64,000 nucleotides of DNA from a virus: the IMG/VR virus record IMGVR_UViG_3300037247_000924; one strand, written 5' to 3'. The notes beneath the pieces were generated by a model. It ran no database searches, was not told the DNA's origin, and saw nothing but the letters and a program-made list of their open reading frames with translations. This document shows positions 4,700-51,421 of the stretch, piece by piece; within the stretch, counting starts at the first letter, position 1; each line of letters begins with the position of its first letter. The translations under genes were made by a program, and so were the position numbers.

Positions 4700-5217
4700 C
4701 CTACGATAATCATCCGATAATTTCCGGACGTATTTACAATTATTTTTAAAGCATTGTCATTAGGATCAATAAACACCCTCTCCACTAAACCTGATTGGCT
4801 AGCATCAACACACGGAGTAGTGAATATTCCACCATTTAAAGACTGTCGATACCAGATAGTGTACTTAAAATCATATGGGCCAGAAGAATCCTGCCCATTA
4901 CCGTTCAGATAGAACACATTCTTTAATAATCCACCTACTGTCTGATTCAGGCCAGCTGCTGGCGATAACTCGGTTTGAGTAAGGATAGTAGCCGTATGTG
5001 GATTAGAGCTCGATATCGCCGCCCCGTTTATCTGTGGTGGCACAAACTCTGTATTGTATACAATCTTCTCTGCCTGATAGATCTCTTGGCCTCCATCAGC
5101 ACCGGTAGCGCCTGTTGCACCGGTAGCACCCGCAACACCAGGTTCTCCCGCTGGACCCTGAGGCCCCCGAAGACCCGACTTGGGTAATTGGATTGAAGTG
5201 TTTTTACATCCTGACAT
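4696..5217 (-). CDS. Collagen-like (Gly-X-Y) virion protein
   Basis: GLRGPQGPAGEPGVAGATGATGATGADG. Confidence 0.65.
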   Translation of the reverse strand: MSGCKNTSIQLPKSGLRGPQGPAGEPGVAGATGATGATGADGGQEIYQAEKIVYNTEFVPPQINGAAISSSNPHTATILTQTELSPAAGLNQTVGGLLKNVFYLNGNGQDSSGPYDFKYTIWYRQSLNGGIFTTPCVDASQSGLVERVFIDPNDNALKIIVNTSGNYRMIIVG

Positions 5218-5723
5218 TATCCTTCTATAATAATCCTGTAGGATCCACCACTACCTAAAGCAAAGGTAAGATCAATATTATTTAAACTATTTACTGTCAC
5301 TCCTGTTACTCGGGGAGATGTCCCCTCTGTAGCAGAAATAAATACTACGTTTGGTGGTGAAGTAACTGTATCCCGGTACCACACCTGGTAATTAAAGTCC
5401 ATTGCCGATGCTGTTTGTGCTGCTAGATTCAAGTTTGCATCATATACAGTCCTTAACATTCCTGCAGTCGTTAGTTCCGCAGCAGTTACTACACCTAGAA
5501 ATGAGGTAGCCGTACCACTGATAGAAAAGTCCTTTACGAACTTTGTTACCGTAGTAGGGCCATTACTACCGTTAGTTCCGGCAGTTCCGGCAGTTCCAGT
5601 GGCGCCTGTCGCACCCGTAGGCCCAACTGGACCGGGCACACCCTGAGGGCCTGCTGGATAAACGAGAATATCATCATTACAAAGGCAAACTGAAGAGCTG
5701 CCGCACGAGTTACATGAAGCCAT
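5217..5723 (-). CDS. Collagen-like (Gly-X-Y) virion protein, paralog of 4696..5217
   Basis: GPQGVPGPVGPTGATGATGTAGTAGTNGSNG; C-terminal DFNYQVWYR...YRIIIEG matches DFKYTIWYR...YRMIIVG of the neighbour. Confidence 0.65.
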   Translation of the reverse strand: MASCNSCGSSSVCLCNDDILVYPAGPQGVPGPVGPTGATGATGTAGTAGTNGSNGPTTVTKFVKDFSISGTATSFLGVVTAAELTTAGMLRTVYDANLNLAAQTASAMDFNYQVWYRDTVTSPPNVVFISATEGTSPRVTGVTVNSLNNIDLTFALGSGGSYRIIIEG

Positions 5724-5744
5724 AATATATAGTTTTTAAGTTTT

Positions 5745-6980
5745 TCATAAACAACTACTACAAAAATTTTCCGAACAAAGGATGTCCAAGGTTTCATTAA
5801 TATTGTTTGCCCGAGTATTCTGCCCGGACTGTGCTGCATGCTGTAATGCTTCTAGCATAGTAAACGCAAATAAAGCTCTTTCTACTGCCACATTGTCACA
5901 GGCACAATCTTTTTCCGGGATCTCGGCTATGATATTATGAATACAACAAACCTTTCCACAAAAGATCAGGAATTCCCTTATTACCTCAAAGGATCCATCG
6001 TTTCCACCCCCGTTTCCATAAACAACATATCGTATGGTATATATTCCACTAGGGAATTCCGTAGCAGTAGCGTAGCTTAAATCATCCGTATCTACTGAGA
6101 ATGTCGTTCCGTCCACATTTGGAAGCGTGGGGAATACTCCAATCACATTAGACTTTACTGAAACCGTACCGCTACCAGTGCTTGTAAGGTCAATAGCTGT
6201 ACCAGCTGTAGCGTTAACAGAAGAGGTGGCCAATGATATAGTGCTTCCGGAAACTACTATTACGTAATACAGCCTATCCTCAGAGAGTCCGCCCGGTAAT
6301 GTAGCTGGACTGTTCTCAGATACTAATATTACTTGGTCCCTAACGCTGAGTCCATGGGCAGGGATCGTGATTGTATCGTTTGTAGTACTTACTATAGATG
6401 TACCGTCCGCTTCGAACGTTAGAGGCGTATAGGTAACCCCAGGGACCTCGTATTCTATAAAAGCACCAGTTACATCGACTACTGCCACATCGCTCCATAC
6501 GCCTTGCTGAATGTTCTCAAAGGTGAATGTAGTGGTTGCTGCGCCATCAGCTATGTTCGTTACGTTACCGGTTTGTGTATTGGTGATCGTTACTATATCA
6601 GATACTCTAGCTGCCGTGAAAGGGCTTCCGGTAACCGCGTTCAAGGCTGTAGTTGTATTTGTAGCTATAGTAACTGCCGTAGCTCCGGTTGCCGCTGTTA
6701 TTTCTATTCCGGTACTACTGGCCACTGCAGGGTCTGTTCCTGCGCTGTTAATATTATACCATACGTAGTAGTCTGTCTGTGGAGTAGAGAATAGGAAGTA
6801 CTGATCATTCAGGTTCCCGCCTACATCTGCTACAGTAGTCAGTCGCATGATCTCAGGAACATTGGTAGTCCTGTAGCCCGTAGAATTCGTGCTGGAATTA
6901 AAAATTCCACTCTCATCAGACACACATAAATGTGTGCATGTGTTGTTCGAGACTAAATTAACATCGGGTGCAAATGGCAT
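5745..6980 (-). CDS. Virion protein with small beta-barrel (FCCH-like) insert and Cys-rich C-terminus
   Basis: TITIPAHGL...LYYVIVVSGSTISLA motif shared with 7058..7786; CGKVCC, CACD, CSENFCSSC. Confidence 0.45.
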   Translation of the reverse strand: MPFAPDVNLVSNNTCTHLCVSDESGIFNSSTNSTGYRTTNVPEIMRLTTVADVGGNLNDQYFLFSTPQTDYYVWYNINSAGTDPAVASSTGIEITAATGATAVTIATNTTTALNAVTGSPFTAARVSDIVTITNTQTGNVTNIADGAATTTFTFENIQQGVWSDVAVVDVTGAFIEYEVPGVTYTPLTFEADGTSIVSTTNDTITIPAHGLSVRDQVILVSENSPATLPGGLSEDRLYYVIVVSGSTISLATSSVNATAGTAIDLTSTGSGTVSVKSNVIGVFPTLPNVDGTTFSVDTDDLSYATATEFPSGIYTIRYVVYGNGGGNDGSFEVIREFLIFCGKVCCIHNIIAEIPEKDCACDNVAVERALFAFTMLEALQHAAQSGQNTRANNINETLDILCSENFCSSCL

Positions 6981-18469: not shown

Positions 18470-21400
18470 TTACTGGAACCAGTCTGGTTGTGGACGTTGT
18501 TCTTTCTTTCCAAACGGATCGGACTTAAAAAACGGATCGTCCAGTACTGTTCTTACGTTTTCTTGCTTGATCACTCTCTGTTTCCTTATCTGTGCTAAGT
18601 AATACATTAAAACGAGAAATGACATTACCCTGTCATAGTTCCCATCTTCAGTGTACGCGATCAATTCTTTCAAAAACGGAATTGACCTAATTTTCTGCAA
18701 ATTTAACAATAATTCATCATCTTCTCGTTTTTCTATCAACCAAGTTTTCACCATTTCTTCACCAAACTCCTTTAACCCAGTAGTCATGTGTATTCCTTTT
18801 TTTCTACTTACCTTAGAATCATCAATAACATCTTGGATGATCTCAACAGGTTGATCTAACAATAAATACGTGCAGTTCTGGGAGTCGAAATAGTCAAATA
18901 ATCCCTTCCTTTCATTTTCATAAAGAATCTGGCAATTATAATACAGGAGTAGTTTACGTACATTCTCGTAGTAAATTTTAGAAGTCTCTGGCCTGCCAGA
19001 ATACTCGGCAACAATCTTATGATTCACTCTATCATAGACGAAAGTAGATCCCAGTGATCCGGTACTGGACTTATCATGATCGTATGGATCCGCGCTGGCC
19101 GCGTACATTCCTCTTGGTGGCCTGCCAGACTCATCATGATACGGATGGTTGAAAATAACTATACACCCAGTAGCGTCCTGCCCAGCTCTCATTGGGAAAT
19201 CGATAATTGGTACCAGGTCCGTATTCTCCTTCCAGACAATATCGCCTAAATTATCCGTAACTAAGTCTCCAATAAAATCTGCATTCCTAATCCTCTCGTT
19301 CGATTCCAAATACCCCAGGTGTTGTTTTAGCTCAGCAACGGCAAAGATCATTCCCTCTGTTCGCAAGACAGCCTCGGAAGGACTGAATGGCTTTTCTGCC
19401 ACGTATCGAACCACTGCATTCCGATCCTTAGCATTATCAGCTATCAGCTTACGCTCCTTCATTTCACGCTCTATTGCAGCCTCGATATTAGAGTTCCCAT
19501 TCTCATCATAGTAGCCCTCCATATTTAGGTATTCAGGTCCGAAGTATCCACACTCCGTATCTCCTTTCCCGTCATCCCAGATGTTAGGAGTATGGTGGAT
19601 ATTATAGGCTTTGGGGTAATAGAACAGTTCTTCTAGTCCATCAAAGTTGCTTCCTTCAGTTCCGCCTGTATTATGGGTAATAATTCCATTGGCAATATAT
19701 GTGCTTGTCGTACCGGCTGTTAAATTATAAATATCCCTCATTCCAATCTCCTCAACACTAATTACTCTCTCTAATCTCAGCCCATGCACATTAGCAGATA
19801 TCCCCTCTTTCTTATCTCTATACATCTCCTTAAATGTATTTAGTCTTCTTTGTTTTTCTGCTGGAAATAATTTAATATTCTTCACGAATGCTAAAACGCT
19901 TCTTTTGTCAGCAATTTCAAATCTAAAATGGTCGTTTTTGTCTTTAGGATTTTTTTCACTCTTTTTTATCCTCTGAATAGCTCCATGAACACCTATTCTC
20001 TGAAGTAAAAATCTTATTTCATCTAATAAGGTAAAGGACATAGAGGTTATGCTTATCCTACCTCTTTTCTTTTCAACATATCCATCCGTGTCGAAAAGAC
20101 CACCCAGTAATTCACAAATACTTTTTTTTGAGTAAGAATGGATATTCCTAGGAAGAGTTTTTGATAGTTTAGTTTGACCATATATTCCTACCGCTCTTAA
20201 TTTAGGGCAGATTCCTCTAATTCGTGTCTCTCTGTAAATCTTGCCTGTTTTTGTTATGTACTGCTTCTCAATAACGGTGTCGTAATTGGAATCAATAGCA
20301 GTGTTTATCTCGCCTTCACAATTAGAAAGGATGGGGGTCTTATTAATCCCATAGCTACCATCTCCAATTAACCATCCCAAAAGCCTCGCATCAGGTAATT
20401 CCTTACGCCTGGATATGGGCACAACATCAATCACTGCTATTTGATCACTAGCCTTAATATTCTTAGCCTCAACAAACTCTGTTTTTTTTATGAATGGTCT
20501 ACGAATATTACCTTTTGGTTTTCTAGGCTGAGAACCATGCCAGAGTTTACTCCATAATATTGGATGATCTTCACTGCACTCCAGCACTCTTCCGGTATGG
20601 GTGGTTATTCGATAGCAAAGCTTTTTAGCTGGCGGGTTCCAGTGAGTTACTTCCTCTTTTGATATCCTGCCTTCTTCTTTATTATACCCCAATATTCCCT
20701 GCCGCGGCTTAAGGTCTTCTATTTTCACTAAGTCTCCTCTATTATTCCAGACCTTTGTTCCAGCACAAACACATCCGAATGCAACTTGTAATCCGAACGT
20801 AATTGGACCCTGCTCCATCGAACTTCTAGTAATTCCCCAGGCCGTTAATAGTTTCGGGAAAAGACCAGCCTCCTCGAACAGAATCAGTTTCCCACGTTTT
20901 CCTCTCGATCTATTTGGGTTATCTTTTAGGGAGACTCCTATAATTTCAGACTTATAGCCCTTCTCTATACTTTGGCCATCTTCTAGCTCTGTAAAACTAG
21001 CCTTTCTGCGCATCTCCTTGTTAGTAGAGCTTCTTTTTGTCCAGGCGGTATGTTCGTTTATAAAATCTATATTATCCCACGCCTTTGTCAATAATCCATC
21101 TGAGGTTAGGTGCTCTTTCTCAAATGCCATAGCATAAGACTTGGATCCTCGAATAAGAAAATAATTACGACACAGCATATTGGCTCCTTTGTACGAAAAT
21201 CCGCGCCCACGCGCCTTAAGAACCACTCCATGCTTCCCATTTTTTTCAGCATCTTCTAGGTAATTAAAATACTTATAATCCCCGTCCCATACTTTAGGGA
21301 ACAACATAGGCCTATCGCCCTGGACCCTTTCATCTTCCTTTATATCCTCTATTGCTTCTACAACAGGGATCTGGCAATAATTCAAATAAAAGTAGTAGTA

Positions 21401-21574
21401 TCCAGATATCTTATCAAATCCCAAATCATAGCCTTCTATAGATCTTCTTTTCTCCTCTTCCCAAAACTTCATATACCCACTGGAGGGTAAATCATTAAAG
21501 GGATGTTTAGTATAGACTCCATGCTCCTCGAAATGAGCAGCAGCCGGTCTAAATTCTTGTACCCTTTCTAGCAT
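18470..21574 (-). CDS. terL: Terminase large subunit containing an intein
   Basis: Walker A LKARGRGFSY, Walker B LILFEEAG, AFG|intein|TGG, nuclease domain SADPYDHD and NYDRVMS. Confidence 0.93.
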   Translation of the reverse strand: MLERVQEFRPAAAHFEEHGVYTKHPFNDLPSSGYMKFWEEEKRRSIEGYDLGFDKISGYYYFYLNYCQIPVVEAIEDIKEDERVQGDRPMLFPKVWDGDYKYFNYLEDAEKNGKHGVVLKARGRGFSYKGANMLCRNYFLIRGSKSYAMAFEKEHLTSDGLLTKAWDNIDFINEHTAWTKRSSTNKEMRRKASFTELEDGQSIEKGYKSEIIGVSLKDNPNRSRGKRGKLILFEEAGLFPKLLTAWGITRSSMEQGPITFGLQVAFGCVCAGTKVWNNRGDLVKIEDLKPRQGILGYNKEEGRISKEEVTHWNPPAKKLCYRITTHTGRVLECSEDHPILWSKLWHGSQPRKPKGNIRRPFIKKTEFVEAKNIKASDQIAVIDVVPISRRKELPDARLLGWLIGDGSYGINKTPILSNCEGEINTAIDSNYDTVIEKQYITKTGKIYRETRIRGICPKLRAVGIYGQTKLSKTLPRNIHSYSKKSICELLGGLFDTDGYVEKKRGRISITSMSFTLLDEIRFLLQRIGVHGAIQRIKKSEKNPKDKNDHFRFEIADKRSVLAFVKNIKLFPAEKQRRLNTFKEMYRDKKEGISANVHGLRLERVISVEEIGMRDIYNLTAGTTSTYIANGIITHNTGGTEGSNFDGLEELFYYPKAYNIHHTPNIWDDGKGDTECGYFGPEYLNMEGYYDENGNSNIEAAIEREMKERKLIADNAKDRNAVVRYVAEKPFSPSEAVLRTEGMIFAVAELKQHLGYLESNERIRNADFIGDLVTDNLGDIVWKENTDLVPIIDFPMRAGQDATGCIVIFNHPYHDESGRPPRGMYAASADPYDHDKSSTGSLGSTFVYDRVNHKIVAEYSGRPETSKIYYENVRKLLLYYNCQILYENERKGLFDYFDSQNCTYLLLDQPVEIIQDVIDDSKVSRKKGIHMTTGLKEFGEEMVKTWLIEKREDDELLLNLQKIRSIPFLKELIAYTEDGNYDRVMSFLVLMYYLAQIRKQRVIKQENVRTVLDDPFFKSDPFGKKEQRPQPDWFQ
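19670..20773 (-). mobile_element. Intein with LAGLIDADG homing endonuclease (368 aa)
   Basis: Starts CVCAGTKV, ends YIANGIITHN followed by T; blocks LLGWLIGDGS and LLGGLFDTDG. Confidence 0.92.
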
Positions 21575-21580
21575 AGTACT

Positions 21581-22108
21581 TTAGCTTTCAAATGCCCCGG
21601 CGCTTCCTCCGCCACGAATTCTGGTGTCACTCTGTAGTTCTTTTTTTACCTTCTCATGTAGGCTCTCAAGACTATCCATAATACCACTTGCGTCCTTTAG
21701 TCCTGATGTGACCTCTTTTAGCTTATATAAGGGCTTGCCGTTATCGGGATCATAGTTGACATTACTAAAGTAGTCAGTTGTAGCCTCAAGAGCCTCAATA
21801 GCGCTTTCCAGGAACCTCAACGCTGGGGTTGACTGCAGTATCCTGTACTTTTCTACTCCTGCCCTTAAAACAACACTAATCTGCCGTATGTCGAAATCTT
21901 TCCTTAACGTATCCTCTCGCTCTTCAATAAGATAGGATTGATATACGGAAGAATAGTCACACAGAAAATAGATGTATGATAAGTATTTAATAGCAAGTTC
22001 CTTTTTTGGAGAGGTATCATGTTTCCAAATGGCGGCAAATTCCGGTATTGAAAGTGCTGCAGGATTTATTGTGAGTTCCTTGTTACTGTCTAAGCTTAAT
22101 AGATTCAT
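21581..22108 (-). CDS. Conserved crAss-like protein upstream of TerL (possible TerS)
   Basis: F..IW..D.S..KE.A...L.YIYF..DY.S.Y motif and position. Confidence 0.5.
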   Translation of the reverse strand: MNLLSLDSNKELTINPAALSIPEFAAIWKHDTSPKKELAIKYLSYIYFLCDYSSVYQSYLIEEREDTLRKDFDIRQISVVLRAGVEKYRILQSTPALRFLESAIEALEATTDYFSNVNYDPDNGKPLYKLKEVTSGLKDASGIMDSLESLHEKVKKELQSDTRIRGGGSAGAFES

Positions 22109-22296
22109 GTACTGCTGATTACTTGGGGAGCATCGGGGACCCCGGTTATGGTCGAGCTTTCCTCTGAATAGGTAATGTCAAAACTGGGTTCATCTTCGCC
22201 TATATAAGATATTAGATAGCGTATCCTTGACTCAAGAATCCTTACTGTAGTGTAAAATTCCTCTTTTGTTACGTATTCGGTTTTTTTCTTGGTCAT
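22105..22296 (-). CDS. Hypothetical protein
   Basis: 63 aa; stop overlaps the next start codon. Confidence 0.45.
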   Translation of the reverse strand: MTKKKTEYVTKEEFYTTVRILESRIRYLISYIGEDEPSFDITYSEESSTITGVPDAPQVISST

Positions 22297-22297
22297 A

Positions 22298-22501
22298 CTA
22301 CTTCCATCTCTTTAATTCACAAATCACTTTAGGGGCCCTAGTTTTCATTGGTATCGGGCAATTACACTCCTTACAGATATTATACCAGTTAGAAGGGCAT
22401 GGAGCACACATGACAGCCCTTGATTTCGCCATCTGCTCTACCTTGGGATTCTTCCAAATTACGTTCTTCCAGCCGTCGTAGATGTCTTGTAACTTACCCA
22501 T
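22298..22501 (-). CDS. Small Cys-rich (Zn-binding) protein
   Basis: R..MC..CP.....CKECNC...KTR....C...RW. Confidence 0.6.
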   Translation of the reverse strand: MGKLQDIYDGWKNVIWKNPKVEQMAKSRAVMCAPCPSNWYNICKECNCPIPMKTRAPKVICELKRWK

Positions 22502-22578
22502 TTAACGACAATATAGAAATTGTGTTACTGTAAAATTAGGAATAGTGCGGGGGTAAACCTAAGAAAATACGGATTAAG

Positions 22579-22653
22579 TGGTTGCCCAACGTGGATTCGA
22601 ACCACGATTCACTCCTTCAAAGGGAGGTGTCCTGCCAGTTAGACGAAAGGGCA
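22579..22653 (-). tRNA. tRNA-Gln(UUG)
   Basis: Cloverleaf; loop CT-TTG-AA; encoded CCA. Confidence 0.92.
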
Positions 22654-22659
22654 ATATTG

Positions 22660-22733
22660 CTGCGAGTCTGAGACTCGAACTCAGGATCTTCTGCTTAACA
22701 GGCAGCTGCTGTAACCAACTCAGCTAACTCGCA
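22660..22733 (-). tRNA. tRNA-Asn(GUU)
   Basis: Cloverleaf; loop CT-GTT-AA. Confidence 0.92.
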
Positions 22734-22738
22734 TTTTG

Positions 22739-22808
22739 CACAGGAAGCAGGAGTTGAACCCACAAGTCACGAGTTTGGAATCCGCTTAGTACACCAATAC
22801 GTTCCTGC
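22739..22808 (-). tRNA. tRNA-Trp(CCA), short D arm
   Basis: Acceptor GCAGGAA/TTCCTGT; loop TT-CCA-AA; T-loop TTCAACT; weak anticodon stem. Confidence 0.75.
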
Positions 22809-22814
22809 GTATAG

Positions 22815-22888
22815 CGGTACGGGCTGGACTCGAACCAGCGGCCAGCAGATCTTCAATCTACCACTCTACGCAACTGAGTTACCGTACC
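22815..22888 (-). tRNA. tRNA-Phe(GAA)
   Basis: Cloverleaf; loop TT-GAA-GA. Confidence 0.9.
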
Positions 22889-22894
22889 TTATTG

Positions 22895-22968
22895 AGACCA
22901 GAACAGGGTTCGAACCTGCGTAAAGGGTTTTGCAGACCCCCACCTATAACCATCTCAGACATCTGGCC
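22895..22968 (-). tRNA. tRNA-Cys(GCA)
   Basis: Cloverleaf; loop CT-GCA-AA; U73. Confidence 0.92.
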
Positions 22969-22973
22969 TTGTG

Positions 22974-23047
22974 CGGTACCGATGGGATTTGAACCCACGA
23001 TCTCCTCCGTGACAGGGAGGCAACATACACCAACATGATGCGGCACC
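22974..23047 (-). tRNA. tRNA-Asp(GUC)
   Basis: Cloverleaf; CCTCC CT-GTC-AC GGAGG; G73. Confidence 0.9.
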
Positions 23048-23051
23048 ATAT

Positions 23052-23081
23052 AAAAAAAGCCCTTCGCTATTAACAAAGGGC
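23052..23081 (-). terminator. Attenuator terminator C (upstream of Asp-Cys-Phe-Trp-Asn-Gln)
   Basis: GCCCTTTG-TTAATAG-CGAAGGGC-TTTTTTT, ending 4 nt before tRNA-Asp. Confidence 0.88.
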
Positions 23082-23107
23082 CTCGACTATTCTTTAAAGT
23101 TAGCGCA

Positions 23108-23173
23108 TTAGCCCCCTGTATCTTGATTAAAATCAAAATCACAGTTAAACCAATTTTGCTGTACTCTTCTCAT
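23108..23173 (-). CDS. Leader peptide C, MRRVQQNWFNCDFDFNQDTGG
   Basis: ATG AGA AGA GTA CAG CAA AAT TGG TTT AAC TGT GAT TTT GAT TTT AAT CAA GAT ACA GGG GGC TAA; codons 5-18 use only the six amino acids of the downstream tRNAs. Confidence 0.9.
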   Translation of the reverse strand: MRRVQQNWFNCDFDFNQDTGG

Positions 23174-23183
23174 AATTTCTTAG

Positions 23184-23256
23184 TATCCCAGACCAGATTC
23201 GAACTGGCGACTTTACCTTGAAAGGGTAACGGCTTGACCAACTTGCCCACAGGGAC
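23184..23256 (-). tRNA. tRNA-Glu(UUC)
   Basis: Cloverleaf; TTACC CT-TTC-AA GGTAA. Confidence 0.9.
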
Positions 23257-23293
23257 AAGTCTCCTCAGCTTCAATATCTACCGTTGCTTTCAT
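23213..23293 (-). CDS. Putative leaderless peptide MKATVDIEAEET... reading into tRNA-Glu
   Basis: ATG 4 nt after TATATTTG; GAA GCT GAG GAG just before the tRNA 5' end; stop inside the anticodon arm. Confidence 0.45.
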   Translation of the reverse strand: MKATVDIEAEETCPCGQVGQAVTLSR

Positions 23294-23297
23294 CTTG

Positions 23298-23305
23298 CAA
23301 ATATA
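23298..23305 (-). promoter_or_regulatory. -7 promoter element TATATTTG (tRNA-Glu and operon C)
   Basis: Exact TAnnTTTG match. Confidence 0.75.
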
Positions 23306-23325
23306 CAATTCTTTTTTTAATAACG

Positions 23326-23399
23326 TGATTCCGGTGAGAGTCGAACTCACAACCCTCTGCTTAGAAGGCAGATGCTCTATCCAGTTGAGCTACGGAACC
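23326..23399 (-). tRNA. tRNA-Arg(UCU)
   Basis: TCTGC CT-TCT-AA GCAGA. Confidence 0.92.
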
Positions 23400-23402
23400 A
23401 TG

Positions 23403-23475
23403 TTCCCCTGGTGGGCCTCGAACCCACTACTTTCCCGTTAAAAGCGGGAAGCCCGTCCACATGAGCTTCAGAGGA
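23403..23475 (-). tRNA. tRNA-Lys(UUU)
   Basis: TCCCG CT-TTT-AA CGGGA. Confidence 0.9.
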
Positions 23476-23537
23476 ATATATAGGAATACCAGGACGTTAT
23501 CTACGCCTGATCACCTGTTTATATTTCCTCTTACTTC

Positions 23538-24215
23538 TCATGCTAATGTTTTTGTTCTTATGTAATCAATTCCTCCATAAACGTTTTGTACTAATTCGGT
23601 TGAGCACACATATAGAGTTCCTGTTCCATACGGGAGCTTTCCAATTCCTTTTCTCTGAGTATCCCTTCTTATTTTATTCTTTGAGCATAACAGTGTCCAT
23701 TTTTTGTTTTTAAGCTTCGGAAACTCTTTGATCCATCGTCTCCTTATTTGGTATTCCGACAACCCGTTTTCTCCATAATAACATACCCGTATTTTGCATG
23801 ATTTATTTTTTACATTCTCATCAACCCACTCCCCCACCACCTTAATCATCGGCAAGTCTGAGTTGGCGAAAGAAAATATATTCCTACCCTTGGAGCCCTC
23901 ACCCCAATAAAGAGCGCATATCAACCTAAAAGGCTCATCTGTTTTTGCCCTCTCAAAACCATTCTTTCTGTAGCCTAATCTTCTCTCTTGTGCTTTTGTT
24001 TTATTGATTCTAGACTGCACTAGGAGCTTATCTATACCTGCATTTAAGCGGTTATTTTCTAAAGTTCGCTTATGATCTTCTGTTAACTTTACATCCCGAA
24101 CCCATAAACTAACCGAGCTTTTTGACACTCTAAGTTTTTTAGCGATCTTAAACAGGCTTAATCCCAATCCACGAAGCCGCCTAGCCTCTTTTTGCTCATT
24201 TTCTTTTTTCTTCAT
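23538..24215 (-). CDS. HTH plus LAGLIDADG-like putative homing endonuclease inside the tRNA array
   Basis: N-terminal HTH (GLSLFKIAKKLRVSKSSVSLWVR); ALYWGEGSK, FANSD and YGTGTL motifs; between tRNA-Val and tRNA-Lys. Confidence 0.6.
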   Translation of the reverse strand: MKKKENEQKEARRLRGLGLSLFKIAKKLRVSKSSVSLWVRDVKLTEDHKRTLENNRLNAGIDKLLVQSRINKTKAQERRLGYRKNGFERAKTDEPFRLICALYWGEGSKGRNIFSFANSDLPMIKVVGEWVDENVKNKSCKIRVCYYGENGLSEYQIRRRWIKEFPKLKNKKWTLLCSKNKIRRDTQRKGIGKLPYGTGTLYVCSTELVQNVYGGIDYIRTKTLA

Positions 24216-24244
24216 CCGAACCTCTGTCTTATTAATATATAAGA

Positions 24245-24252
24245 CAAAGATA
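24245..24252 (-). promoter_or_regulatory. -7 promoter element TATCTTTG for the endonuclease-like gene
   Basis: TAnnTTTG immediately 3' of tRNA-Val. Confidence 0.6.
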
Positions 24253-24263
24253 CTAATTATTAT

Positions 24264-24340
24264 TGGTACTTGCTAAGAGATTCGAACTCCTGACCCTCTC
24301 GGTGTAAACGAGACGCTCTTAACCGCTGAGCTAAGCAAGC
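24264..24340 (-). tRNA. tRNA-Val(UAC)
   Basis: TCTCG TT-TAC-AC CGAGA; encoded CCA. Confidence 0.93.
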
Positions 24341-24346
24341 ATGTAG

Positions 24347-24422
24347 TGGATCTGAACGGACTTGAACCGATAACCTTCTGAGTGCAAAACAGACGCTCTA
24401 GCCAAATTGGAGCTACAAACCC
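24347..24422 (-). tRNA. tRNA-Ala(UGC)
   Basis: Loop TT-TGC-AC; G3:U70 identity pair. Confidence 0.92.
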
Positions 24423-24426
24423 ATTT

Positions 24427-24514
24427 TAATCATGCCTCCCTGTGGAGTATCTGCACAGGACTATGCCCGCTCACCACCCCGATGGATTTCACATTCTTCA
24501 GGGAGACATGATTA
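24427..24514 (-). ncRNA. Structured RNA of unknown function between tRNA-Ile2 and tRNA-Ala
   Basis: 16-bp closing stem TAATCATGTCTCCCTG / CAGGGAGGCATGATTA enclosing two small hairpins. Confidence 0.5.
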
Positions 24515-24520
24515 TCATAG

Positions 24521-24594
24521 TTGACCCTAAAGGAATTGAACCTTTAACCTTCCGGTTATGAGCCGGGCGCTCTGACCAATTGAGCTAAGGGTCA
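24521..24594 (-). tRNA. tRNA-Ile2(CAU), lysidine-type (elongator Met not excluded)
   Basis: CCCGG CT-CAT-AA CCGGA; acceptor TGACCCT resembles Ile2. Confidence 0.75.
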
Positions 24595-24597
24595 CTG

Positions 24598-24671
24598 AGC
24601 GAATAGTCGGGATCGAACCGACTCTATTTCTGCTTGGAAGGCAGACGCACCACCGTTTATGCGTTACTCGC
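24598..24671 (-). tRNA. tRNA-Gly(UCC)
   Basis: TCTGC CT-TCC-AA GCAGA; U73. Confidence 0.92.
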
Positions 24672-24677
24672 TTATTG

Positions 24678-24750
24678 TTGGCAAAATTGGATTTGAACCA
24701 ATGACCCCCGCCTTATCAGGACGGTGCTCTCACCGCTGAGCTATTCGCCA
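24678..24750 (-). tRNA. tRNA-Ile(GAU)
   Basis: CCGTC CT-GAT-AA GGCGG. Confidence 0.92.
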
Positions 24751-24755
24751 ATATG

Positions 24756-24829
24756 TAGCGGGACACGGATTCGAACCGTGGACCTGTAGGTTATGAGCCT
24801 ACCGAGCTGACCAACTGCTCCATCCCGCT
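24756..24829 (-). tRNA. tRNA-Met(CAU), initiator-like
   Basis: AGCGGGATGGAGCAG 5' end resembles fMet; loop CT-CAT-AA; 1:72 is paired (A-U). Confidence 0.85.
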
Positions 24830-24837
24830 ATATATTG

Positions 24838-24911
24838 AGCCGCATACAGGATTCGAACCTGTGACCGGTTGATTACAAATCAACAGCTCTGACCATCTGA
24901 GCTAACGCGGC
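24838..24911 (-). tRNA. tRNA-Thr(UGU)
   Basis: GTTGA TT-TGT-AA TCAAC. Confidence 0.92.
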
Positions 24912-24914
24912 ATT

Positions 24915-24946
24915 AAAAAACCCCAAGCAATTTCTCACTTGGGGTT
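24915..24946 (-). terminator. Attenuator terminator B (upstream of the Thr...Val/Lys/Arg block)
   Basis: CCCCAAG-TGAGAAATTG-CTTGGGG-TTTTTT, ending 3 nt before tRNA-Thr. Confidence 0.88.
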
Positions 24947-24967
24947 CCAGTATCGTAAATTGCTTCG

Positions 24968-25054
24968 TTAGGTTATACATACACCGGTGCCCCCTTGTGA
25001 CTTAATCACCGTGGCAGCCATTCTCGCTATCGTATTTCTCCTTATTGAAGTCAT
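24968..25054 (-). CDS. Leader peptide B, MTSIRRNTIARMAATVIKSQGGTGVCIT
   Basis: 28 codons, 23 of which encode T/M/I/G/A/V/K/R; Arg codons are all AGR; Ile is ATA x3 and ATT x1. Confidence 0.85.
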   Translation of the reverse strand: MTSIRRNTIARMAATVIKSQGGTGVCIT

Positions 25055-25073
25055 TTTGTTTTTATTAACAGTA

Positions 25074-25081
25074 CAAACGTA
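25074..25081 (-). promoter_or_regulatory. -7 promoter element TACGTTTG (operon B)
   Basis: TAnnTTTG followed by an A-rich 5' UTR and the leader ATG. Confidence 0.75.
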
Positions 25082-25114
25082 CAACCCTTGGATTTAATAT
25101 CCTAATTTATTTTG

Positions 25115-25187
25115 GGTGACACCGGGACTCGAACCCTGTTCTCCAGATTCACAGTCTGGCACTTTACGCATATAAGCTAGTGACACC
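25115..25187 (-). tRNA. tRNA-His(GUG)
   Basis: CCAGA CT-GTG-AA TCTGG; C73; acceptor/T-stem register ambiguous by 1 nt. Confidence 0.88.
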
Positions 25188-25193
25188 ATATAG

Positions 25194-25265
25194 TACCCCC
25201 GGCACGATTCGAACGCGCATTCCCTGGTCCGAAGCCAGGAGCTCTATCCGTTGAACTACGGAGGC
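25194..25265 (-). tRNA. tRNA-Arg(UCG)
   Basis: CCTGG CT-TCG-GA CCAGG. Confidence 0.9.
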
Positions 25266-25270
25266 ATTTG

Positions 25271-25355
25271 TACCGAGAGCGGGCCTCGAACCCGCAAGAT
25301 CGCAATGACCGTCAGGGCTTAAACCTGATGCGTTTACCTATTTCACCACCTCGGC
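25271..25355 (-). tRNA. tRNA-Leu(UAA)
   Basis: TCAGG TT-TAA-GC CCTGA; long variable arm. Confidence 0.92.
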
Positions 25356-25359
25356 ATAG

Positions 25360-25434
25360 TACCGGTGAAGGGAATCGAACCCCCAGAACTCCTGATCCTA
25401 AGTCAGGCGACTTTACCATTTTGCCCACACCGGC
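25360..25434 (-). tRNA. tRNA-Leu(UAG), short variable region
   Basis: CCTGA CT-TAG-GA TCAGG; variable region about 6 nt; 75 nt total. Confidence 0.85.
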
Positions 25435-25439
25435 ATTCG

Positions 25440-25509
25440 TGGGGTACCAGGATTCGAACCTTGGCGGTTAGGGGTTACAACCCTTCCGGCACAACCTACG
25501 CTGCACCCC
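25440..25509 (-). tRNA. Atypical tRNA-Tyr(GUA), 70 nt
   Basis: Acceptor GGGGTGC/GTACCCC; loop TT-GTA-AC; T-loop TTCGAAT; reduced D arm; no long variable arm. Confidence 0.6.
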
Positions 25510-25515
25510 ATCTAG

Positions 25516-25597
25516 CGGAAAACAGAGGCCACGATCCCCAATCCTTTCAGATCCACCTCTTTAGCAAAGAGAGCCTACCCAGGTAGGTTTATCTTCC
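25516..25597 (-). tRNA. tRNA-Ser(GCU)
   Basis: TCTCT TT-GCT-AA AGAGG; long variable arm; G73; non-canonical T-loop ATCGTGG. Confidence 0.85.
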
Positions 25598-25602
25598 GTA
25601 TG

Positions 25603-25691
25603 CGGAAAGCGGAGGACCCGACCCCCAGACAACTTAATGCCTTCTAGTTTTCAAGACTAGCCGCAGCTCCATTGCCACTGCTTCACCTTCC
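25603..25691 (-). tRNA. tRNA-Ser(UGA)
   Basis: CTAGT CT-TGA-AA ACTAG; long variable arm; G73; non-canonical T-loop. Confidence 0.85.
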
Positions 25692-25696
25692 GTTTG

Positions 25697-25769
25697 TCTG
25701 AGTGGAGAGACTTGAACTCCCGTCCTGAGCATCCCAAATGCCCCGCGCTACCAACTGTGCCACACCCAG
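25697..25769 (-). tRNA. tRNA-Pro(UGG)
   Basis: GGGCA TT-TGG-GA TGCTC; C1:G72. Confidence 0.92.
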
Positions 25770-25781
25770 ATATTATTCCAC

Positions 25782-25813
25782 AAAAAAAGCCCCGGAGGTT
25801 ATCCGAGGCTTTT
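25782..25813 (-). terminator. Attenuator terminator A (upstream of the Pro...His block)
   Basis: GCCTCGGA-TAACC-TCCGGGGC-TTTTTTT, ending 12 nt before tRNA-Pro. Confidence 0.9.
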
Positions 25814-25832
25814 CCTATATATGTCGTGAATC

Positions 25833-25901
25833 TTACATAGGCGTATCCCCCGGACTTGCGTTCGGCAGCGAATAGCGACTATGTAAGAGTTGTTGAATCA
25901 C
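25833..25901 (-). CDS. Leader peptide A, (M)IQQLLHSRYSLPNASPGDTPM
   Basis: GTG ATT CAA CAA CTC TTA CAT AGT CGC TAT TCG CTG CCG AAC GCA AGT CCG GGG GAT ACG CCT ATG TAA; GTG 4 nt after the -7 box (leaderless). Confidence 0.85.
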   Translation of the reverse strand: MIQQLLHSRYSLPNASPGDTPM

Positions 25902-25905
25902 GATG

Positions 25906-25913
25906 CAAATATA
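25906..25913 (-). promoter_or_regulatory. -7 promoter element TATATTTG (operon A)
   Basis: Exact TAnnTTTG match. Confidence 0.78.
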
Positions 25914-25927
25914 CTACTCTTTTTCGA

Positions 25928-26251
25928 TTATTTTAAAAACGCCTCTCTTTTTATTTTATCATAATCTACTCCCTTACAAATTTGTTTAGTCAAAAACCTA
26001 CAATAATCCGGATTAACTTTTTGTCTGTATCCAAGTAAATGCATAGAATTAGCTTTTCCCTTTAGTTTATGAGATTTAACCTTATAAAAAATCCCCCAAT
26101 AATCTTTTATTCTCTTTTTAAGCTTTCTGGATATTCTAGGATTCTCTCTAAGACAGTGTTTTGTTTTAGGTTCCGTAAAATGTTTTTCTAACTCTTCATA
26201 TAGAATAGCCTTCATTCTTCTTTGCCTAGCTCCTGTCTGGATTAATTGCAC
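25928..26251 (-). CDS. Hypothetical basic protein
   Basis: 107-aa ORF; start uncertain. Confidence 0.45.
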   Translation of the reverse strand: MQLIQTGARQRRMKAILYEELEKHFTEPKTKHCLRENPRISRKLKKRIKDYWGIFYKVKSHKLKGKANSMHLLGYRQKVNPDYCRFLTKQICKGVDYDKIKREAFLK

Positions 26252-26379
26252 AACTCGTACAGTCTTTACCTGAATGATGATCTACTGGACAGGGCCTATC
26301 TGTCAAGAGATCGCATTGCCTCTTACCGTCTTCCCAATAATAATGAAACATCCCTGATAATTCGGTTTCTGGCATCTTC

Positions 26380-26745
26380 TTAAAGTGTTTCAAAATAGAA
26401 TTTTACTTTAACTCCTGTTTCTTTGATAAGTCCGTAATCTTTTGCCATTCGATATGCACTTGAATCCCTCTGGAGCCGTTCACATTGTTTCTGAAGCTCT
26501 TCCCTGAATTTCTCAATGGTAAAAGTGTCCTTCCACCTATTGCATCTAGGGCAGCTAGGATTTGAGTTTTCTAAAGTATCAGCACCCTTTTTTAACTTAT
26601 ACTTTTCACATTCCTCTAGTGTCATGTTGTGCCAATGAGCTTCGATATGGTCTACATGCCAACCCTTCTGTAATTCACAACCACAGTAGGCGCACTTACC
26701 TCCGTACTTATCAAATATAAACTTTCTATCGCTTGCTTTACTCAT
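26380..26745 (-). CDS. HNH endonuclease
   Basis: CAYCG...WHVDHI...NPSCPRCNRWK. Confidence 0.88.
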   Translation of the reverse strand: MSKASDRKFIFDKYGGKCAYCGCELQKGWHVDHIEAHWHNMTLEECEKYKLKKGADTLENSNPSCPRCNRWKDTFTIEKFREELQKQCERLQRDSSAYRMAKDYGLIKETGVKVKFYFETL

Positions 26746-26790
26746 CCTCTAAGGTTGCTTTTTTGAGCGTATTATCCATATCTAACTCTT

Positions 26791-26994
26791 CTAATTTCTC
26801 TTTTTGATCGAATGATCATTGGCTAAAAGTCGTTTATATGCTTCTATACCCGCCTCTGTAAGTTCGTATTTCCCTTTAACCTCCCTGAACCATTCCGCAT
26901 TTATATTTGAACCAGAACCAATAAGAATACACTTAGTAGGCTTTCCTTTATCCCACCAACTAGCGTTCTTGAGTTTTTTAATATCGTAGTTCAT
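26791..26994 (-). CDS. Hypothetical protein
   Basis: 67-aa ORF. Confidence 0.4.
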   Translation of the reverse strand: MNYDIKKLKNASWWDKGKPTKCILIGSGSNINAEWFREVKGKYELTEAGIEAYKRLLANDHSIKKRN

Positions 26995-27069
26995 TATATT
27001 CTAATTACTAATTTGATAATTATTAGTAATGGTTAGTAATACGCCACAACCGTCATTAGTTTATACTCA

Positions 27070-27549
27070 CTATTTACCATGCTCCTCATCATGGCACTTC
27101 TCACAAAGAGTTATCATATCCTTTCCTTTCGCTTCCCATATATAACTATTCTTTCGATACTTAAGATGGTGAACATGCAGCATACTGTCTTTATCACCAC
27201 ACCTCCTGCAAGTAAATTTGTCTCTCTCTAGTATCTGTAGCCTTCTCCGCTGCCAATTCGGGTGCCTGTACTGCTCTTTCCATGTTAAGGGCTCCGCTAC
27301 AGGTATAAATCTAACCTTTTTGTTTTTAAACTTACTTCTTTTCTTTCTACACGGCTTCCCGGTTAAATGTTTATTCCTTAGGTCCAAAAACTCCTGCATA
27401 GCGTTCTCGGTATACTCCTTTCCGATCAATTGCTTTTTCCATCCTTTAGGAGTAAACTTAAAAACGCCTAACGCCCTGAATTGAGCATTAGACCATCCGC
27501 CATGACGACTCTTTGCGGCATCCATAATATCCTGGGTCATCACTACCAT
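27070..27549 (-). CDS. HNH endonuclease with extra N-terminal domain
   Basis: WQRRRLQILERDKFTCRRCG...LHVHH...TLCEKCHDEEH; N-terminal GGWSNAQ...PKGWKK. Confidence 0.85.
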   Translation of the reverse strand: MVVMTQDIMDAAKSRHGGWSNAQFRALGVFKFTPKGWKKQLIGKEYTENAMQEFLDLRNKHLTGKPCRKKRSKFKNKKVRFIPVAEPLTWKEQYRHPNWQRRRLQILERDKFTCRRCGDKDSMLHVHHLKYRKNSYIWEAKGKDMITLCEKCHDEEHGK

Positions 27550-27796
27550 ACCAACTCTTTCTCTGAAATCCCTTATTCAGCAGTTTAAAACCTGTTTAGT
27601 TCTACTATAATCTAATCATTTACTCCTAATCCTCTGTACGATTAGTGGAATAGGTCGTCGAATTTTCAGCTTAACCGTCCTCAGTTGTCGAGGTATTCCC
27701 AGGAAGGTTCCCACCTTTCCCTTCTTCAATCTTAGATAACCCTTTTGTTTCTACCTTCTTGCGGTACTTCGGTTGGGTTGTAAGAACCGATATTAG

Positions 27797-27875
27797 TGGA
27801 GAGTGAAGGACTCGAACCTCCGACCTGCTGTCTTAACCGTGCGCACCGCTGCTCTACCAACTGAGCTAACTCCCC
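27797..27875 (-). tRNA. tRNA-Ala-like RNA with 13-nt anticodon loop
   Basis: Acceptor GGGGAGT/ACTCTCC-A (G3:U70), canonical D and T arms, anticodon arm GCGGT-GCGCACGGTTAAG-ACAGC. Confidence 0.7.
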
Positions 27876-28075
27876 ATATGATAACCTGTTAATCCCTTAC
27901 AGAAGGATTAAAGTACAAAGGGTCGGCATAACTTTCAGCCTCCTTCCACCCTCGCGTGTACCTCTCCTATCAACTGCTGTAAAACTTATCTCAATACTGC
28001 TTTTTAAGAGCATCTATTAATATATTGAATCAAAGAGCAGGTTATCAATATTTAAAGAACAATGAGAAAGTATCG

Positions 28076-28126
28076 GACAAAAAGAATCCCGATGCAAACT
28101 AGAGCCAGCACATCGGGAAATTCTTT
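28076..28126. terminator. Long hairpin, bidirectional terminator-like
   Basis: AAAGAATCCCGATG...CATCGGGAAATTCTTT flanked by A and T tracts. Confidence 0.65.
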
Positions 28127-28246
28127 CACGGTATCAGGGGTATCCCTTCTACGTTATAATGTCATTCGAGAATTAGCTGGCTTAATAGTTATTTTCTCTG
28201 ACTACAAAGTAAAGCATTATATATTTAACATACAAGGGTAAATTAC

Positions 28247-28272
28247 AAAACCCCCTGAATAATCAGAGGGCT
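28247..28272 (-). terminator. Intrinsic terminator
   Basis: GCCCTCTGA-TTAT-TCAGGGGGT-TTTG. Confidence 0.7.
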
Positions 28273-28338
28273 TGCACAAATTTAACATTAGAGCTACTTC
28301 TTGCAGCACCCATCTACGGGTAATCAAATATACTGAAT

Positions 28339-28701
28339 TTAAAGCGGATCCAGCGGGTCACCAAAGATCTTTATACACTTTTCTGCCTCAGTCTTCTCTT
28401 CTGCTTGATCTGCTAGTTGATCTTTAAACATCTCCCTAGTGATTTGTTTCCGATCAGCCCAGGCTACTCTCCTACGCTGAGACAAGCAGAAGCTACCAAA
28501 TCCAGGAATCCACACAAGCCTCTTTTCTATAGCCATTTGACTAGCAGTAAAGTTGAGTGTCTTCCTAATTATGGACCGAACCACAGTCACGGAGAGCCCC
28601 TGTTCTGCGGCGATCTTACTCACAATCTTTTCAAGTCCTGGTTCAAAAGGTTCAGGTCGGGACCTTGTTACAGGGAAGTGATTGACTACAAGCTTAGCCA
28701 T
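28339..28701 (-). CDS. HU/IHF-like DNA-binding protein
   Basis: IVSKIAAEQGLS...VWIPGFGSFCL, HU family pattern. Confidence 0.75.
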   Translation of the reverse strand: MAKLVVNHFPVTRSRPEPFEPGLEKIVSKIAAEQGLSVTVVRSIIRKTLNFTASQMAIEKRLVWIPGFGSFCLSQRRRVAWADRKQITREMFKDQLADQAEEKTEAEKCIKIFGDPLDPL

Positions 28702-50979: not shown

Positions 50980-51421
50980 GGCTCTTCTCCAACAGCTTCT
51001 CTCGGGGTAGGTTATGCCACTGAAAATGTTCCTGGGGTGTTTTAAGTACAATATTCTTATCGTATAACCGATAGCCAGGATATGCCGCCTTGGTCAACAA
51101 ATGACTGAACATGCTCACATTCATCTCCTCACCCAAATCTACGCCTGAAACAAACGATACGTGTGGCCGTGTTTCCCAAATTGACTGAAATAGGACCAGC
51201 TCCCCTGTCGGTTTACGTGGTTTCTGCTTTATAGGAGAGCGTTTAAGCTGCTTTCTAGGCCTTTGTGCCCAGTTTATGCTTTTCTTTGGTTTTCGAGCTT
51301 CTAGGCGCTCCGTATTACATGTAGCGCAGTATTTATTAGGTAATATCTTCTTGACGATAGGCTGCTCGGAAGTTCCTGCGGGGCATTCAGTGCAGAATCC
51401 TAGTTTATATTGGAGACTCAC
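50918..51421 (-). CDS. NinG/HNH-like recombination endonuclease
   Basis: CxxC...CxxC N-terminus; FSHLLTK...NIVLKT..EHFQWHN. Confidence 0.6.
   Translation of the reverse strand: MSLQYKLGFCTECPAGTSEQPIVKKILPNKYCATCNTERLEARKPKKSINWAQRPRKQLKRSPIKQKPRKPTGELVLFQSIWETRPHVSFVSGVDLGEEMNVSMFSHLLTKAAYPGYRLYDKNIVLKTPQEHFQWHNLPREKLLEKSPNWQKVFDLYDELQHEYYNS

Follow-up and report, generated by a model that had tools for sequence, protein, structure and literature searches.

What decides when the tRNA genes of a phage are expressed? To our knowledge, the control of such genes is largely unexplained, and phage tRNA arrays are usually taken to be constitutive codon-usage patches or spares against tRNA-cleaving defences. 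The question is posed in a particular form by the array on the minus strand of the IMG/VR virus record IMGVR_UViG_3300037247_000924, of which a stretch of 64,000 nucleotides (hereafter the window) was analyzed. Within this array, a short open reading frame (ORF), a leader hairpin, a GC-rich hairpin with a U-tract and a tRNA block follow each other in this order three times. An initial annotation, made from the letters of the sequence, had described three such minus-strand units in which the tRNA block begins 3-12 nucleotides (nt) after the U-tract, and all three were recovered where it had placed them. They are named here by the first tRNA of their block as the Pro, Thr and Asp units (A, B and C of that annotation; Table 1). 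We propose, with a probability of roughly 0.75 and on the strength of sequence comparison and folding models, that these are three units in series of ribosome-mediated transcription attenuation of the trp/ilv type, which would act on tRNA genes and provide feedback on decoding capacity. Translation of the leaders, termination by the polymerase that transcribes the array and tRNA shortage as the natural trigger are the parts of this proposal that we infer.

The composition of the leaders furnishes one major line of evidence. Codons 5-18 of the Asp leader are drawn only from Q, N, W, F, C and D, i.e., from the amino acids of the six tRNAs downstream, a run of 14 with an analytic probability of ~1.5e-9. 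It is the longest run for the set {D,C,F,W,N,Q} in the six frames of the window, the next being 8 codons long, and among the 845 ORFs of 15-45 codons in the window this leader ranks 1 for its set. The Thr leader likewise ranks 1 among the 845 short ORFs, with 22 of its 27 residues in {T,M,I,G,A,V,K,R} (p 3e-5), and includes a run of 11 codons from the amino acids of its block (p 8e-4). Its K and R codons (AAG; AGG, AGA, AGA) are served by tRNA-Lys(UUU) and tRNA-Arg(UCU), which lie beyond an intervening ORF of 225 amino acids (aa). All amino acids of each block are present in its leader (six in the Pro leader), and a 3x3 table of leaders by blocks has 0.70, 0.57 and 0.81 on the diagonal as opposed to 0.10-0.30 off it. 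The earlier claim that each leader contains a run matching its own block is thus upheld by runs of 14 (Asp), 9 (Pro) and 11 (Thr) codons, the Pro leader being the weakest of the three.

Further, the Arg codons track the isoacceptor, with CGC in the Pro leader, whose block includes Arg-UCG, and AGG, AGA and AGA in the Thr leader near Arg-UCU, an agreement which alone is not significant given the codon usage of the phage. Most of the codons in the control runs of the Pro and Thr leaders end in G or C and are rare in the phage ORFs (relative usage: CTC 0.06, CGC 0.09, TCG 0.06, CCG 0.14, ACG 0.13, GCG 0.12). Rare control codons are typical of sensitive classical leaders, and the requirements of RNA pairing could contribute to their use. 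As a separate observation, the first pass of the Asp leader through its set, Q,N,W,F,C,D (23120-23161), runs exactly opposite to the tRNA genes, which are arranged as Asp,Cys,Phe,Trp,Asn,Gln; this is not so in the other two leaders.

The predicted RNA structures furnish the other. The folds of leader plus terminator are far more stable than those of shuffled sequences (z -5.2, -5.6 and -3.5 for the three units). In the untranslated fold of each unit, a 1:2 hairpin joins the control codons to the G-rich 3' end of the ORF and stands beside a 3:4 terminator, the terminator cores reaching -16.4 to -17.3 kcal/mol. Co-transcriptional folds were computed on the transcript as it stands before the 3' arm of the terminator, with the ORF masked to 12 nt past the codon in the A site. 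The antiterminator predicted by these folds persists for A-site positions within the control run; from about codon 15 onwards in the Asp leader, 13 in the Pro leader and 16 in the Thr leader it is gone, i.e., at the end of the run; with the ribosome at the stop codon, the terminator arm is free. The initial annotation had proposed that the G-rich 3' segment of each leader is complementary to the 5' arm of its terminator, and the masked folds place this pairing in all three units. In dinucleotide shuffles of the spacer (500 trials, counted if both the observed energy and the pairing were reached), it was equalled 0, 2 and 17 times for the Pro, Thr and Asp units, respectively. The predicted geometry is that of the trp-type regions 1, 2, 3 and 4, and every computable sequence-level expectation of the trp/his/ilv-type layout suggested earlier was borne out in each unit. 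A search of 22000-28500 at E values up to 1 detected no T-box and no Rfam leader family (Thr, Leu, Trp and His leaders). Judged by sequence, the units lie outside the Rfam leader families, and their resemblance to these is one of mechanism.

These elements could operate as follows. RNA polymerase would transcribe the short leader ORF, and a trailing ribosome would decode a run that needs exactly the tRNAs encoded past the next terminator. With fast decoding, the ribosome would come to cover the G-rich 3' end of the ORF, whereupon the terminator would form and transcription would stop 3-12 nt before the first tRNA. Any one slow codon (an OR logic) would stall the ribosome on the run with the upstream half of the leader hairpin held inside it, so that the freed G-rich segment could pair with the 5' arm of the terminator and the polymerase would read into the tRNA block. 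Without a ribosome, the leader hairpin and the terminator would both form and transcription would stop. The product tRNA would relieve the stall, and therefore each unit would constitute a negative-feedback loop for its own codon set. The demand of late infection, decay of host tRNAs and anticodon nucleases could all serve as triggers. That tRNA supply is the selected variable is argued from a single consideration, namely that leader matches cargo block by block.

The placement of the units within the array bears on how they might be connected. Because only 3-12 nt separate the U-tract from the first tRNA, there is no space for a promoter and the blocks would be expressed only via read-through. 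No terminator was found after the Pro block or after tRNA-Arg(UCU), and upstream transcripts would therefore run into the next attenuator. Similarly, on the minus strand at 22501-22579, between tRNA-Gln and the downstream genes for a 67-aa protein, a 175-aa protein, TerL, the portal and the capsid, neither a terminator-like hairpin nor a TANNTTTG motif was found, and hence read-through at the Asp attenuator may enter the structural module.

Comparable arrangements are present in other genomes. IMG/VR was scanned with an Asp-Cys tRNA neighbour pattern and a generic three-tRNA pattern, and the ~150 array loci obtained were screened by a script validated on the window; sites were screened by a gap-based scan, the strict terminator finder missing many of them. 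The same layout with different leaders and cargo was recovered in three or four unrelated phage lineages of IMG/VR and in an array of an Acidobacteriota, and more weakly in phage phiCbK. In one phage contig, FQDHFDFCDHFDDQQ (L023:3288-3413:-), with a run of 15 (p ~2e-10), is followed by a terminator and an array of only Gln, Phe, Asp, His and Cys tRNAs. This contig, a 42-kb 'provirus' of IMG/VR, encodes ~24 tRNAs, nearly all of which are repeated Asp, His, Gln, Phe and Cys genes. Another contig has two units: MVYTTEQTAEGTIS (L032:753-797:-) and a terminator before Thr, Gly, Ala, Glu and Gln, and MTRWNNIPKCVRHFDMKGSIL (L032:4547-4612:-) with a hairpin and U-tract before Trp, Lys, Arg, Lys, Ile, Val, Met, Arg, Phe, Asn, Asp and Cys, the latter leader covering 10 of the 10 amino acids of its 12-tRNA block. 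A family of huge phages contains homologous leaders (L012:5896-6027:+, L014:3448-3573:+, L034:2223-2357:-), 65-75% of whose residues are Ala, Gly, Val, Cys, Asp and Glu and which precede arrays of exactly those tRNAs. On alignment, compensatory changes accompany the conservation of their structural 3' part and terminator; the control part has drifted apart in sequence but kept its composition. Only the L014 leader has Phe codons in its core, and its array contains a tRNA-Phe. In phiCbK (JX100813, units at 49540-49769 and 51341-51502), annotated terminators stand directly before tRNA blocks and the leader matches are weaker: gp083 (45 aa), in which 25 of 44 residues are S, L, P or K, precedes Pro, Pro, Lys, Lys, three Leu and two Ser tRNAs, and an ORF with QFVRQIQVVRNI precedes Phe, Val, Ile, Ile, Val, Gln and Gln.

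Outside phages, a sample of 120 bacterial and archaeal loci included a 702-kb contig (L240) of an Acidobacteriota metagenome-assembled genome whose 26-tRNA array has two leader and terminator units. One, MTIKTKSMMRRRVNR.. with its terminator, precedes Asn, Met, Ile, Val, Ile, two Lys and four Arg tRNAs; the other has a run of 22 (PHTDCFPTPATFTWQGAGEGTF, 11 of 11 amino acids) and a terminator before Glu, two Gln, Asp, Trp, two Gly, Cys, three Thr, His, Ala, Phe and Pro. The array is flanked by a Ro60/TROVE gene and a fragment of an RtcB-like RNA ligase (1-930 and 5032-5757). A 27-kb contig binned as an archaeon encodes a 33-codon ORF (L243, 4510-4611, minus strand) in which 22 of 32 residues match the amino acids of the tRNAs downstream (His, Ala, Ala, Gln, Tyr, Asp, Gly, Thr, Cys, Glu, Pro); here the strict terminator finder, which misses many sites, detected no terminator.

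Masked-ribosome folds of the L023, L032, L012 and L014 leaders again have the 5' arm of the terminator sequestered during the control run and freed just after it. Between lineages, the leaders have no sequence in common. Of the 283 array sites submitted to a permutation test, 4 score at least 5 as against 0.17 expected. Co-variation of leader composition with tRNA content, which the initial annotation had named as a check on its proposal, is thus seen across lineages in other phage contigs and in the bacterial array. The recurrence in unrelated phages, and in a bacterium beside Ro60 and RtcB, suggests convergent or widely spread use of the device.

Several observations weigh against ribosome-mediated attenuation. 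At equilibrium the terminator is favoured at every position of the ribosome; a thermodynamic switch was accordingly rejected, the terminator always winning and only the co-transcriptional model working, and the switch must therefore be kinetic, as in trp. The Pro leader is the weakest of the three, its run of 9 (LLHSRYSLP) having p ~2.5e-3 and its entire ORF, with 12 of 21 residues in the set, p 0.1; its GTG sits at the presumed transcript start (+1), and translation is most doubtful there. As to the upstream promoters claimed earlier, their position fits, but the TANNTTTG motif is not enriched across the window (44 found against 60 expected), so that they are plausible by position only. The candidate genes for tRNA-Trp, tRNA-Tyr and tRNA-Ser(GCU) are missed at default settings and are called only at relaxed thresholds. 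Most of the sampled phage arrays have no leader of this kind, the device being recurrent and not common. Relatives of the phage at 60-74% protein identity have no array, and at 70-74% capsid identity ordinary genes occupy the array site; in the one relative with an array (L037, 72% identical in the 175-aa protein; a relative of 72-92% identity from JGI sample 3300009514) the contig is cut inside tRNA-Phe and the partner contig starts in TerL. The DNA of the phage is present in one sequencing run only, its source marine sediment metagenome, and in no RNA run. Finally, in the crAss-like phage phi14:2 a virion RNA polymerase makes the early genes without known signals, the middle and late ones being transcribed by the host RNA polymerase (10.1101/2020.03.07.982082).

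Against this background, other explanations of the layout have to be weighed. The same hardware might respond to another signal, amino-acid starvation or a general slowdown of translation, with the tRNA cargo co-regulated with host stress and no self-feedback. Classical attenuators do sense aminoacyl-tRNA, the stall being blind to whether a tRNA is missing or uncharged (textbook knowledge for trp, his and ilv), and the predicted structures fit either signal. Yet extra tRNA cannot relieve amino-acid starvation, so that block-specific matching would then lack a selective reason, whereas the matching is exact in every lineage found, including the Phe codons that accompany tRNA-Phe in L014; we therefore regard this explanation as unlikely. 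It is very unlikely that the ribosome plays no part and that the codon run is a set of specifier triplets which pair with the anticodons of the cargo in the manner of a T-box and stabilize one of the folds. Codons are complementary to anticodons by definition, and the reversed first pass of the Asp leader would agree with such pairing. However, every run lies in a single frame between an in-frame start and stop, the point at which the antiterminator is lost follows the ribosome-sized mask, and there is no Stem I, T-box sequence, Rfam T-box match or visible element for the 3' end of a tRNA.

A more mundane possibility is that the terminators are leaky insulators between tRNA sub-operons and that the ORFs adjoin them by chance. 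Short ORFs are indeed abundant, as the 845 in the window attest, the Pro leader by itself is modestly significant, and the phiCbK record annotates terminators between tRNA groups without comment. The joint probability of three matches at the right places is nevertheless far below 1e-10, the antiterminator pairings beat the shuffles, and the coincidence recurs in unrelated genomes, all of which leaves chance adjacency strongly disfavoured and highly improbable. Scarcely credible, in our estimate, is that the small peptides are themselves functional, e.g., as micro-proteins on the translation apparatus, with a composition set by that function. Nothing specific speaks for it beyond the existence of trans-acting leader peptides, of which peTrpL (PMC7298713) is an example. 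In the L012, L014 and L034 leaders, conservation extends to the RNA-structural 3' part and to composition but not to the peptide of the control part, and no sequence is shared by leaders across lineages.

Attenuation by a translating ribosome, as favoured here, has clear precedents. The ilvGMEDA leader senses Ile/Val/Leu and the thr leader Thr/Ile, and the trp, his, leu and pheA leaders are related. Like these enterobacterial amino-acid leaders, the phage units would have a translated leader with a control run, a 1:2 hairpin, a 2:3 antiterminator and a 3:4 terminator; in both, a stall at any control codon leads to read-through, several amino acids are addressed by one leader and the run includes rare codons. 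Unlike them, the cargo of the phage units consists of tRNA genes instead of biosynthetic enzymes, with the loop closing on the tRNA pool, and each leader would sense six to eight amino acids, in three units in series with Bacteroidota-type signals. The pheST operon of E. coli with its pheM leader offers another parallel, the attenuation of a translation component that serves the sensed codon; there, however, the component is a synthetase protein for one amino acid, whereas the phage would regulate the tRNAs themselves, and in sets. The T-box riboswitches of Firmicutes are similar in that the state of a specific tRNA switches between terminator and antiterminator upstream of translation-related genes, but they read one specifier by RNA-RNA pairing and the 3' end of the tRNA with no ribosome, while the reader in the phage would be the translating ribosome. 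The type of mechanism is hence a textbook one; as far as we know, its novelty resides in the cargo, in the self-referential logic and in the phage context. The initial annotation had left its novelty to a check of the literature, and full-text searches, in which most subscription journals are not covered and which thus provide absence of evidence, found no account, phage or bacterial, of tRNA genes under leader-peptide attenuation.

If the proposal is true, the phage, or likewise a mobile tRNA island, possesses a direct, self-correcting sensor of decoding capacity, with a set of tRNAs made only while ribosomes wait for them and stopped once supply is restored. It would bring a new class of genes under a textbook mechanism, the regulated RNA acting on its own sensor. 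The sequence signature predicts which tRNAs share one regulatory unit and makes the hypothesis of resupply against anticodon nucleases testable; as short, modular, multi-input sensors of codon-specific translation speed, such leaders could also serve as tools. One might go further and envisage a general response of mobile tRNA arrays to tRNA damage or shortage, embodied in this phage by a codon-resolved homeostat of three attenuators for a complete private set of 24 tRNAs, with read-through perhaps coupling the transcription of virion genes to decoding capacity, and in bacteria by the device beside the Ro60 and RtcB RNA-repair genes of the Acidobacteriota contig, which would suggest a back-up supply of tRNAs when anticodon nucleases or stress deplete those of the cell; this generalization is speculative and, as matters stand, doubtful.

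Table 1. Positions of the leader, terminator, promoter-like, pairing and tRNA elements in the window
Feature	Coordinates	Strand	Details
Pro leader ORF VIQQLLHSRYSLPNASPGDTPM	25833..25901	-	GTG start, 22 codons plus stop; control run LLHSRYSLP, codons 5-13 (25889..25863)
Thr leader ORF MTSIRRNTIARMAATVIKSQGGTGVCIT	24968..25054	-	ATG start, 28 codons plus stop; densest run TIARMAATVIK, codons 8-18 (25033..25001)
Asp leader ORF MRRVQQNWFNCDFDFNQDTGG	23108..23173	-	21 codons plus stop; control run QQNWFNCDFDFNQD, codons 5-18 (23161..23120)
Pro-unit terminator	25782..25813	-	12-base-pair (bp) stem, 5-nt loop, U7; core -17.3 kcal/mol; 12 nt to tRNA-Pro
Thr-unit terminator	24915..24946	-	12-bp stem, 4-nt loop, U6; 3 nt to tRNA-Thr
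Asp-unit terminator	23048..23084	-	13-bp stem, 3-nt loop, U-tract; also delimited as 23084..23056; 4 nt to tRNA-Asp
Promoter-like TATATTTG, Pro unit	25906..25913	-	Bacteroidota -7-type; 4 nt upstream of Pro-leader GTG; by position only
Promoter-like TACGTTTG, Thr unit	25074..25081	-	19 nt upstream of Thr-leader ATG; by position only
Promoter-like TATATTTG, Asp unit	23305..23298	-	41 nt before tRNA-Glu; by position only
Pro region 2 GUCCGGGG	25848..25855	-	Predicted to pair with CCUCGGAU of terminator 5' arm; -21.4 kcal/mol; 0/500 shuffles
Thr region 2 UCAC..GGGG	24991..25000	-	Predicted to pair with CCCC..GUGA of terminator 5' arm; -22.2 kcal/mol; 2/500 shuffles
Asp region 2 ACAGGGGGCU	23110..23119	-	Predicted to pair with GGCCCUUUGU of terminator 5' arm; -15.8 kcal/mol; 17/500 shuffles
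Pro block	25114..25769	-	Pro(UGG), Ser(UGA), candidate Ser(GCU) 25593..25515, candidate Tyr(GUA) 25510..25439, Leu(UAG), Leu(UAA), Arg(UCG), His(GUG); ARAGORN/Rfam, two relaxed
Thr block	24264..24911	-	Thr(UGU), CAU tRNA, Ile(GAU), Gly(UCC), CAU tRNA, 97-nt hairpin element, Ala(UGC), Val(UAC); ARAGORN/Rfam
tRNA-Lys(UUU) and tRNA-Arg(UCU)	23325..23475	-	Beyond 225-aa ORF (24215..23538) from Thr block
tRNA-Glu(UUC) and TATATTTG motif	23183..23305	-	tRNA-Glu 23256..23183, motif 23305..23298; Asp leader begins 10 nt downstream of tRNA-Glu
Asp block	22579..23047	-	Asp(GUC), Cys(GCA), Phe(GAA), candidate Trp(CCA) 22808..22738, Asn(GUU), Gln(UUG); ARAGORN/Rfam, Trp relaxed

The array lies upstream of, and on the same minus strand as, the head and packaging module of a crAss-like phage; this module, present in the window, was recognized by its Crass_capsid major head protein, portal and TerL. 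Between 22579 and 25769, 21 tRNAs are called by ARAGORN and Rfam, and three more, Trp(CCA), Tyr(GUA) and Ser(GCU), occupy the remaining tRNA-sized gaps at relaxed ARAGORN thresholds. The block lists given earlier were in this way largely reproduced, most of their tRNAs being called by default; the part that did not stand at default settings comprises these three, of which Ser(GCU) has no Rfam tRNA match. The candidate tRNA-Trp is backed by the relative L037, which has Trp-Asn-Gln in identical order and whose tRNA-Trp aligns to 22808..22738. With the relaxed calls, the array would amount to 24 tRNAs and would serve all 20 amino acids. Some of these genes have odd structures: the candidate Trp has a D stem of 2 bp and is 5 nt short relative to that of L037 (22738-22808), the candidate Tyr (25439-25510) differs from the bacterial type II form in its short variable arm, and the candidate Ser(GCU) (25515-25593) is without a canonical T loop. 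One of the two CAU tRNAs in the Thr block is probably Ile2, because there are three ATA codons in the Thr leader. The sole array tRNA not behind an attenuator is tRNA-Glu, which stands directly behind a promoter-like motif, and Glu occurs in no leader.

A fourth leader candidate, MRSKRKYKQVIRRR (~23497-23541, minus strand), 14 codons long and placed before the Lys and Arg tRNAs, was rejected for want of a significant hairpin (z -1.6). In this ORF 8 of 13 residues are K or R and 4 of 5 Arg codons are AGR; it overlaps the stop of the 225-aa ORF and ends 21 nt before tRNA-Lys. An ORF that reads into tRNA-Glu likewise has no structure (z 0.2). The 225-aa ORF itself (23538-24215, minus strand) is inserted after tRNA-Val and parts Lys/Arg(UCU) from the Thr block; it has no PHROG match and only a faint helix-turn-helix match. 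Between tRNA-Ala and a CAU tRNA, a tRNA-sized slot is filled by a 97-nt hairpin element (24423-24519, minus strand; -38.9 kcal/mol, z -4.7), for which neither Rfam nor ARAGORN returns a match.

In a 455-kb phage with Tyr/Leu/Pro arrays behind terminators, no convincing leader was found. The phage collection holds no close relative of the present phage, only matches at the level of tRNAs; the IMG/VR relatives of the adjacent 175-aa protein have no arrays, a TerL query found nothing, two metagenome scans and one viral scan for L037 returned no match, and the upstream 107-aa ORF has no homologue. Four RNA-seq runs of 2023 (X2-X5) contain a phage that is ~97-98% identical to the phiCbK-like L177 of IMG/VR over the entire tRNA region; it is present there as assembled contigs of 11-19 kb, which reveal neither transcript ends nor levels.

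Two further features of the window lie outside the array. A tRNA-like gene at 27796-27875 (minus strand) scores 49.9 bits with the Rfam tRNA model and is given no normal anticodon by ARAGORN. TerL (18470-21574, minus strand) is 1034 aa long, as compared with 635-674 aa in its relatives, and contains an intein with a LAGLIDADG endonuclease domain by Pfam, its PHROG match spanning residues 580-997 only.

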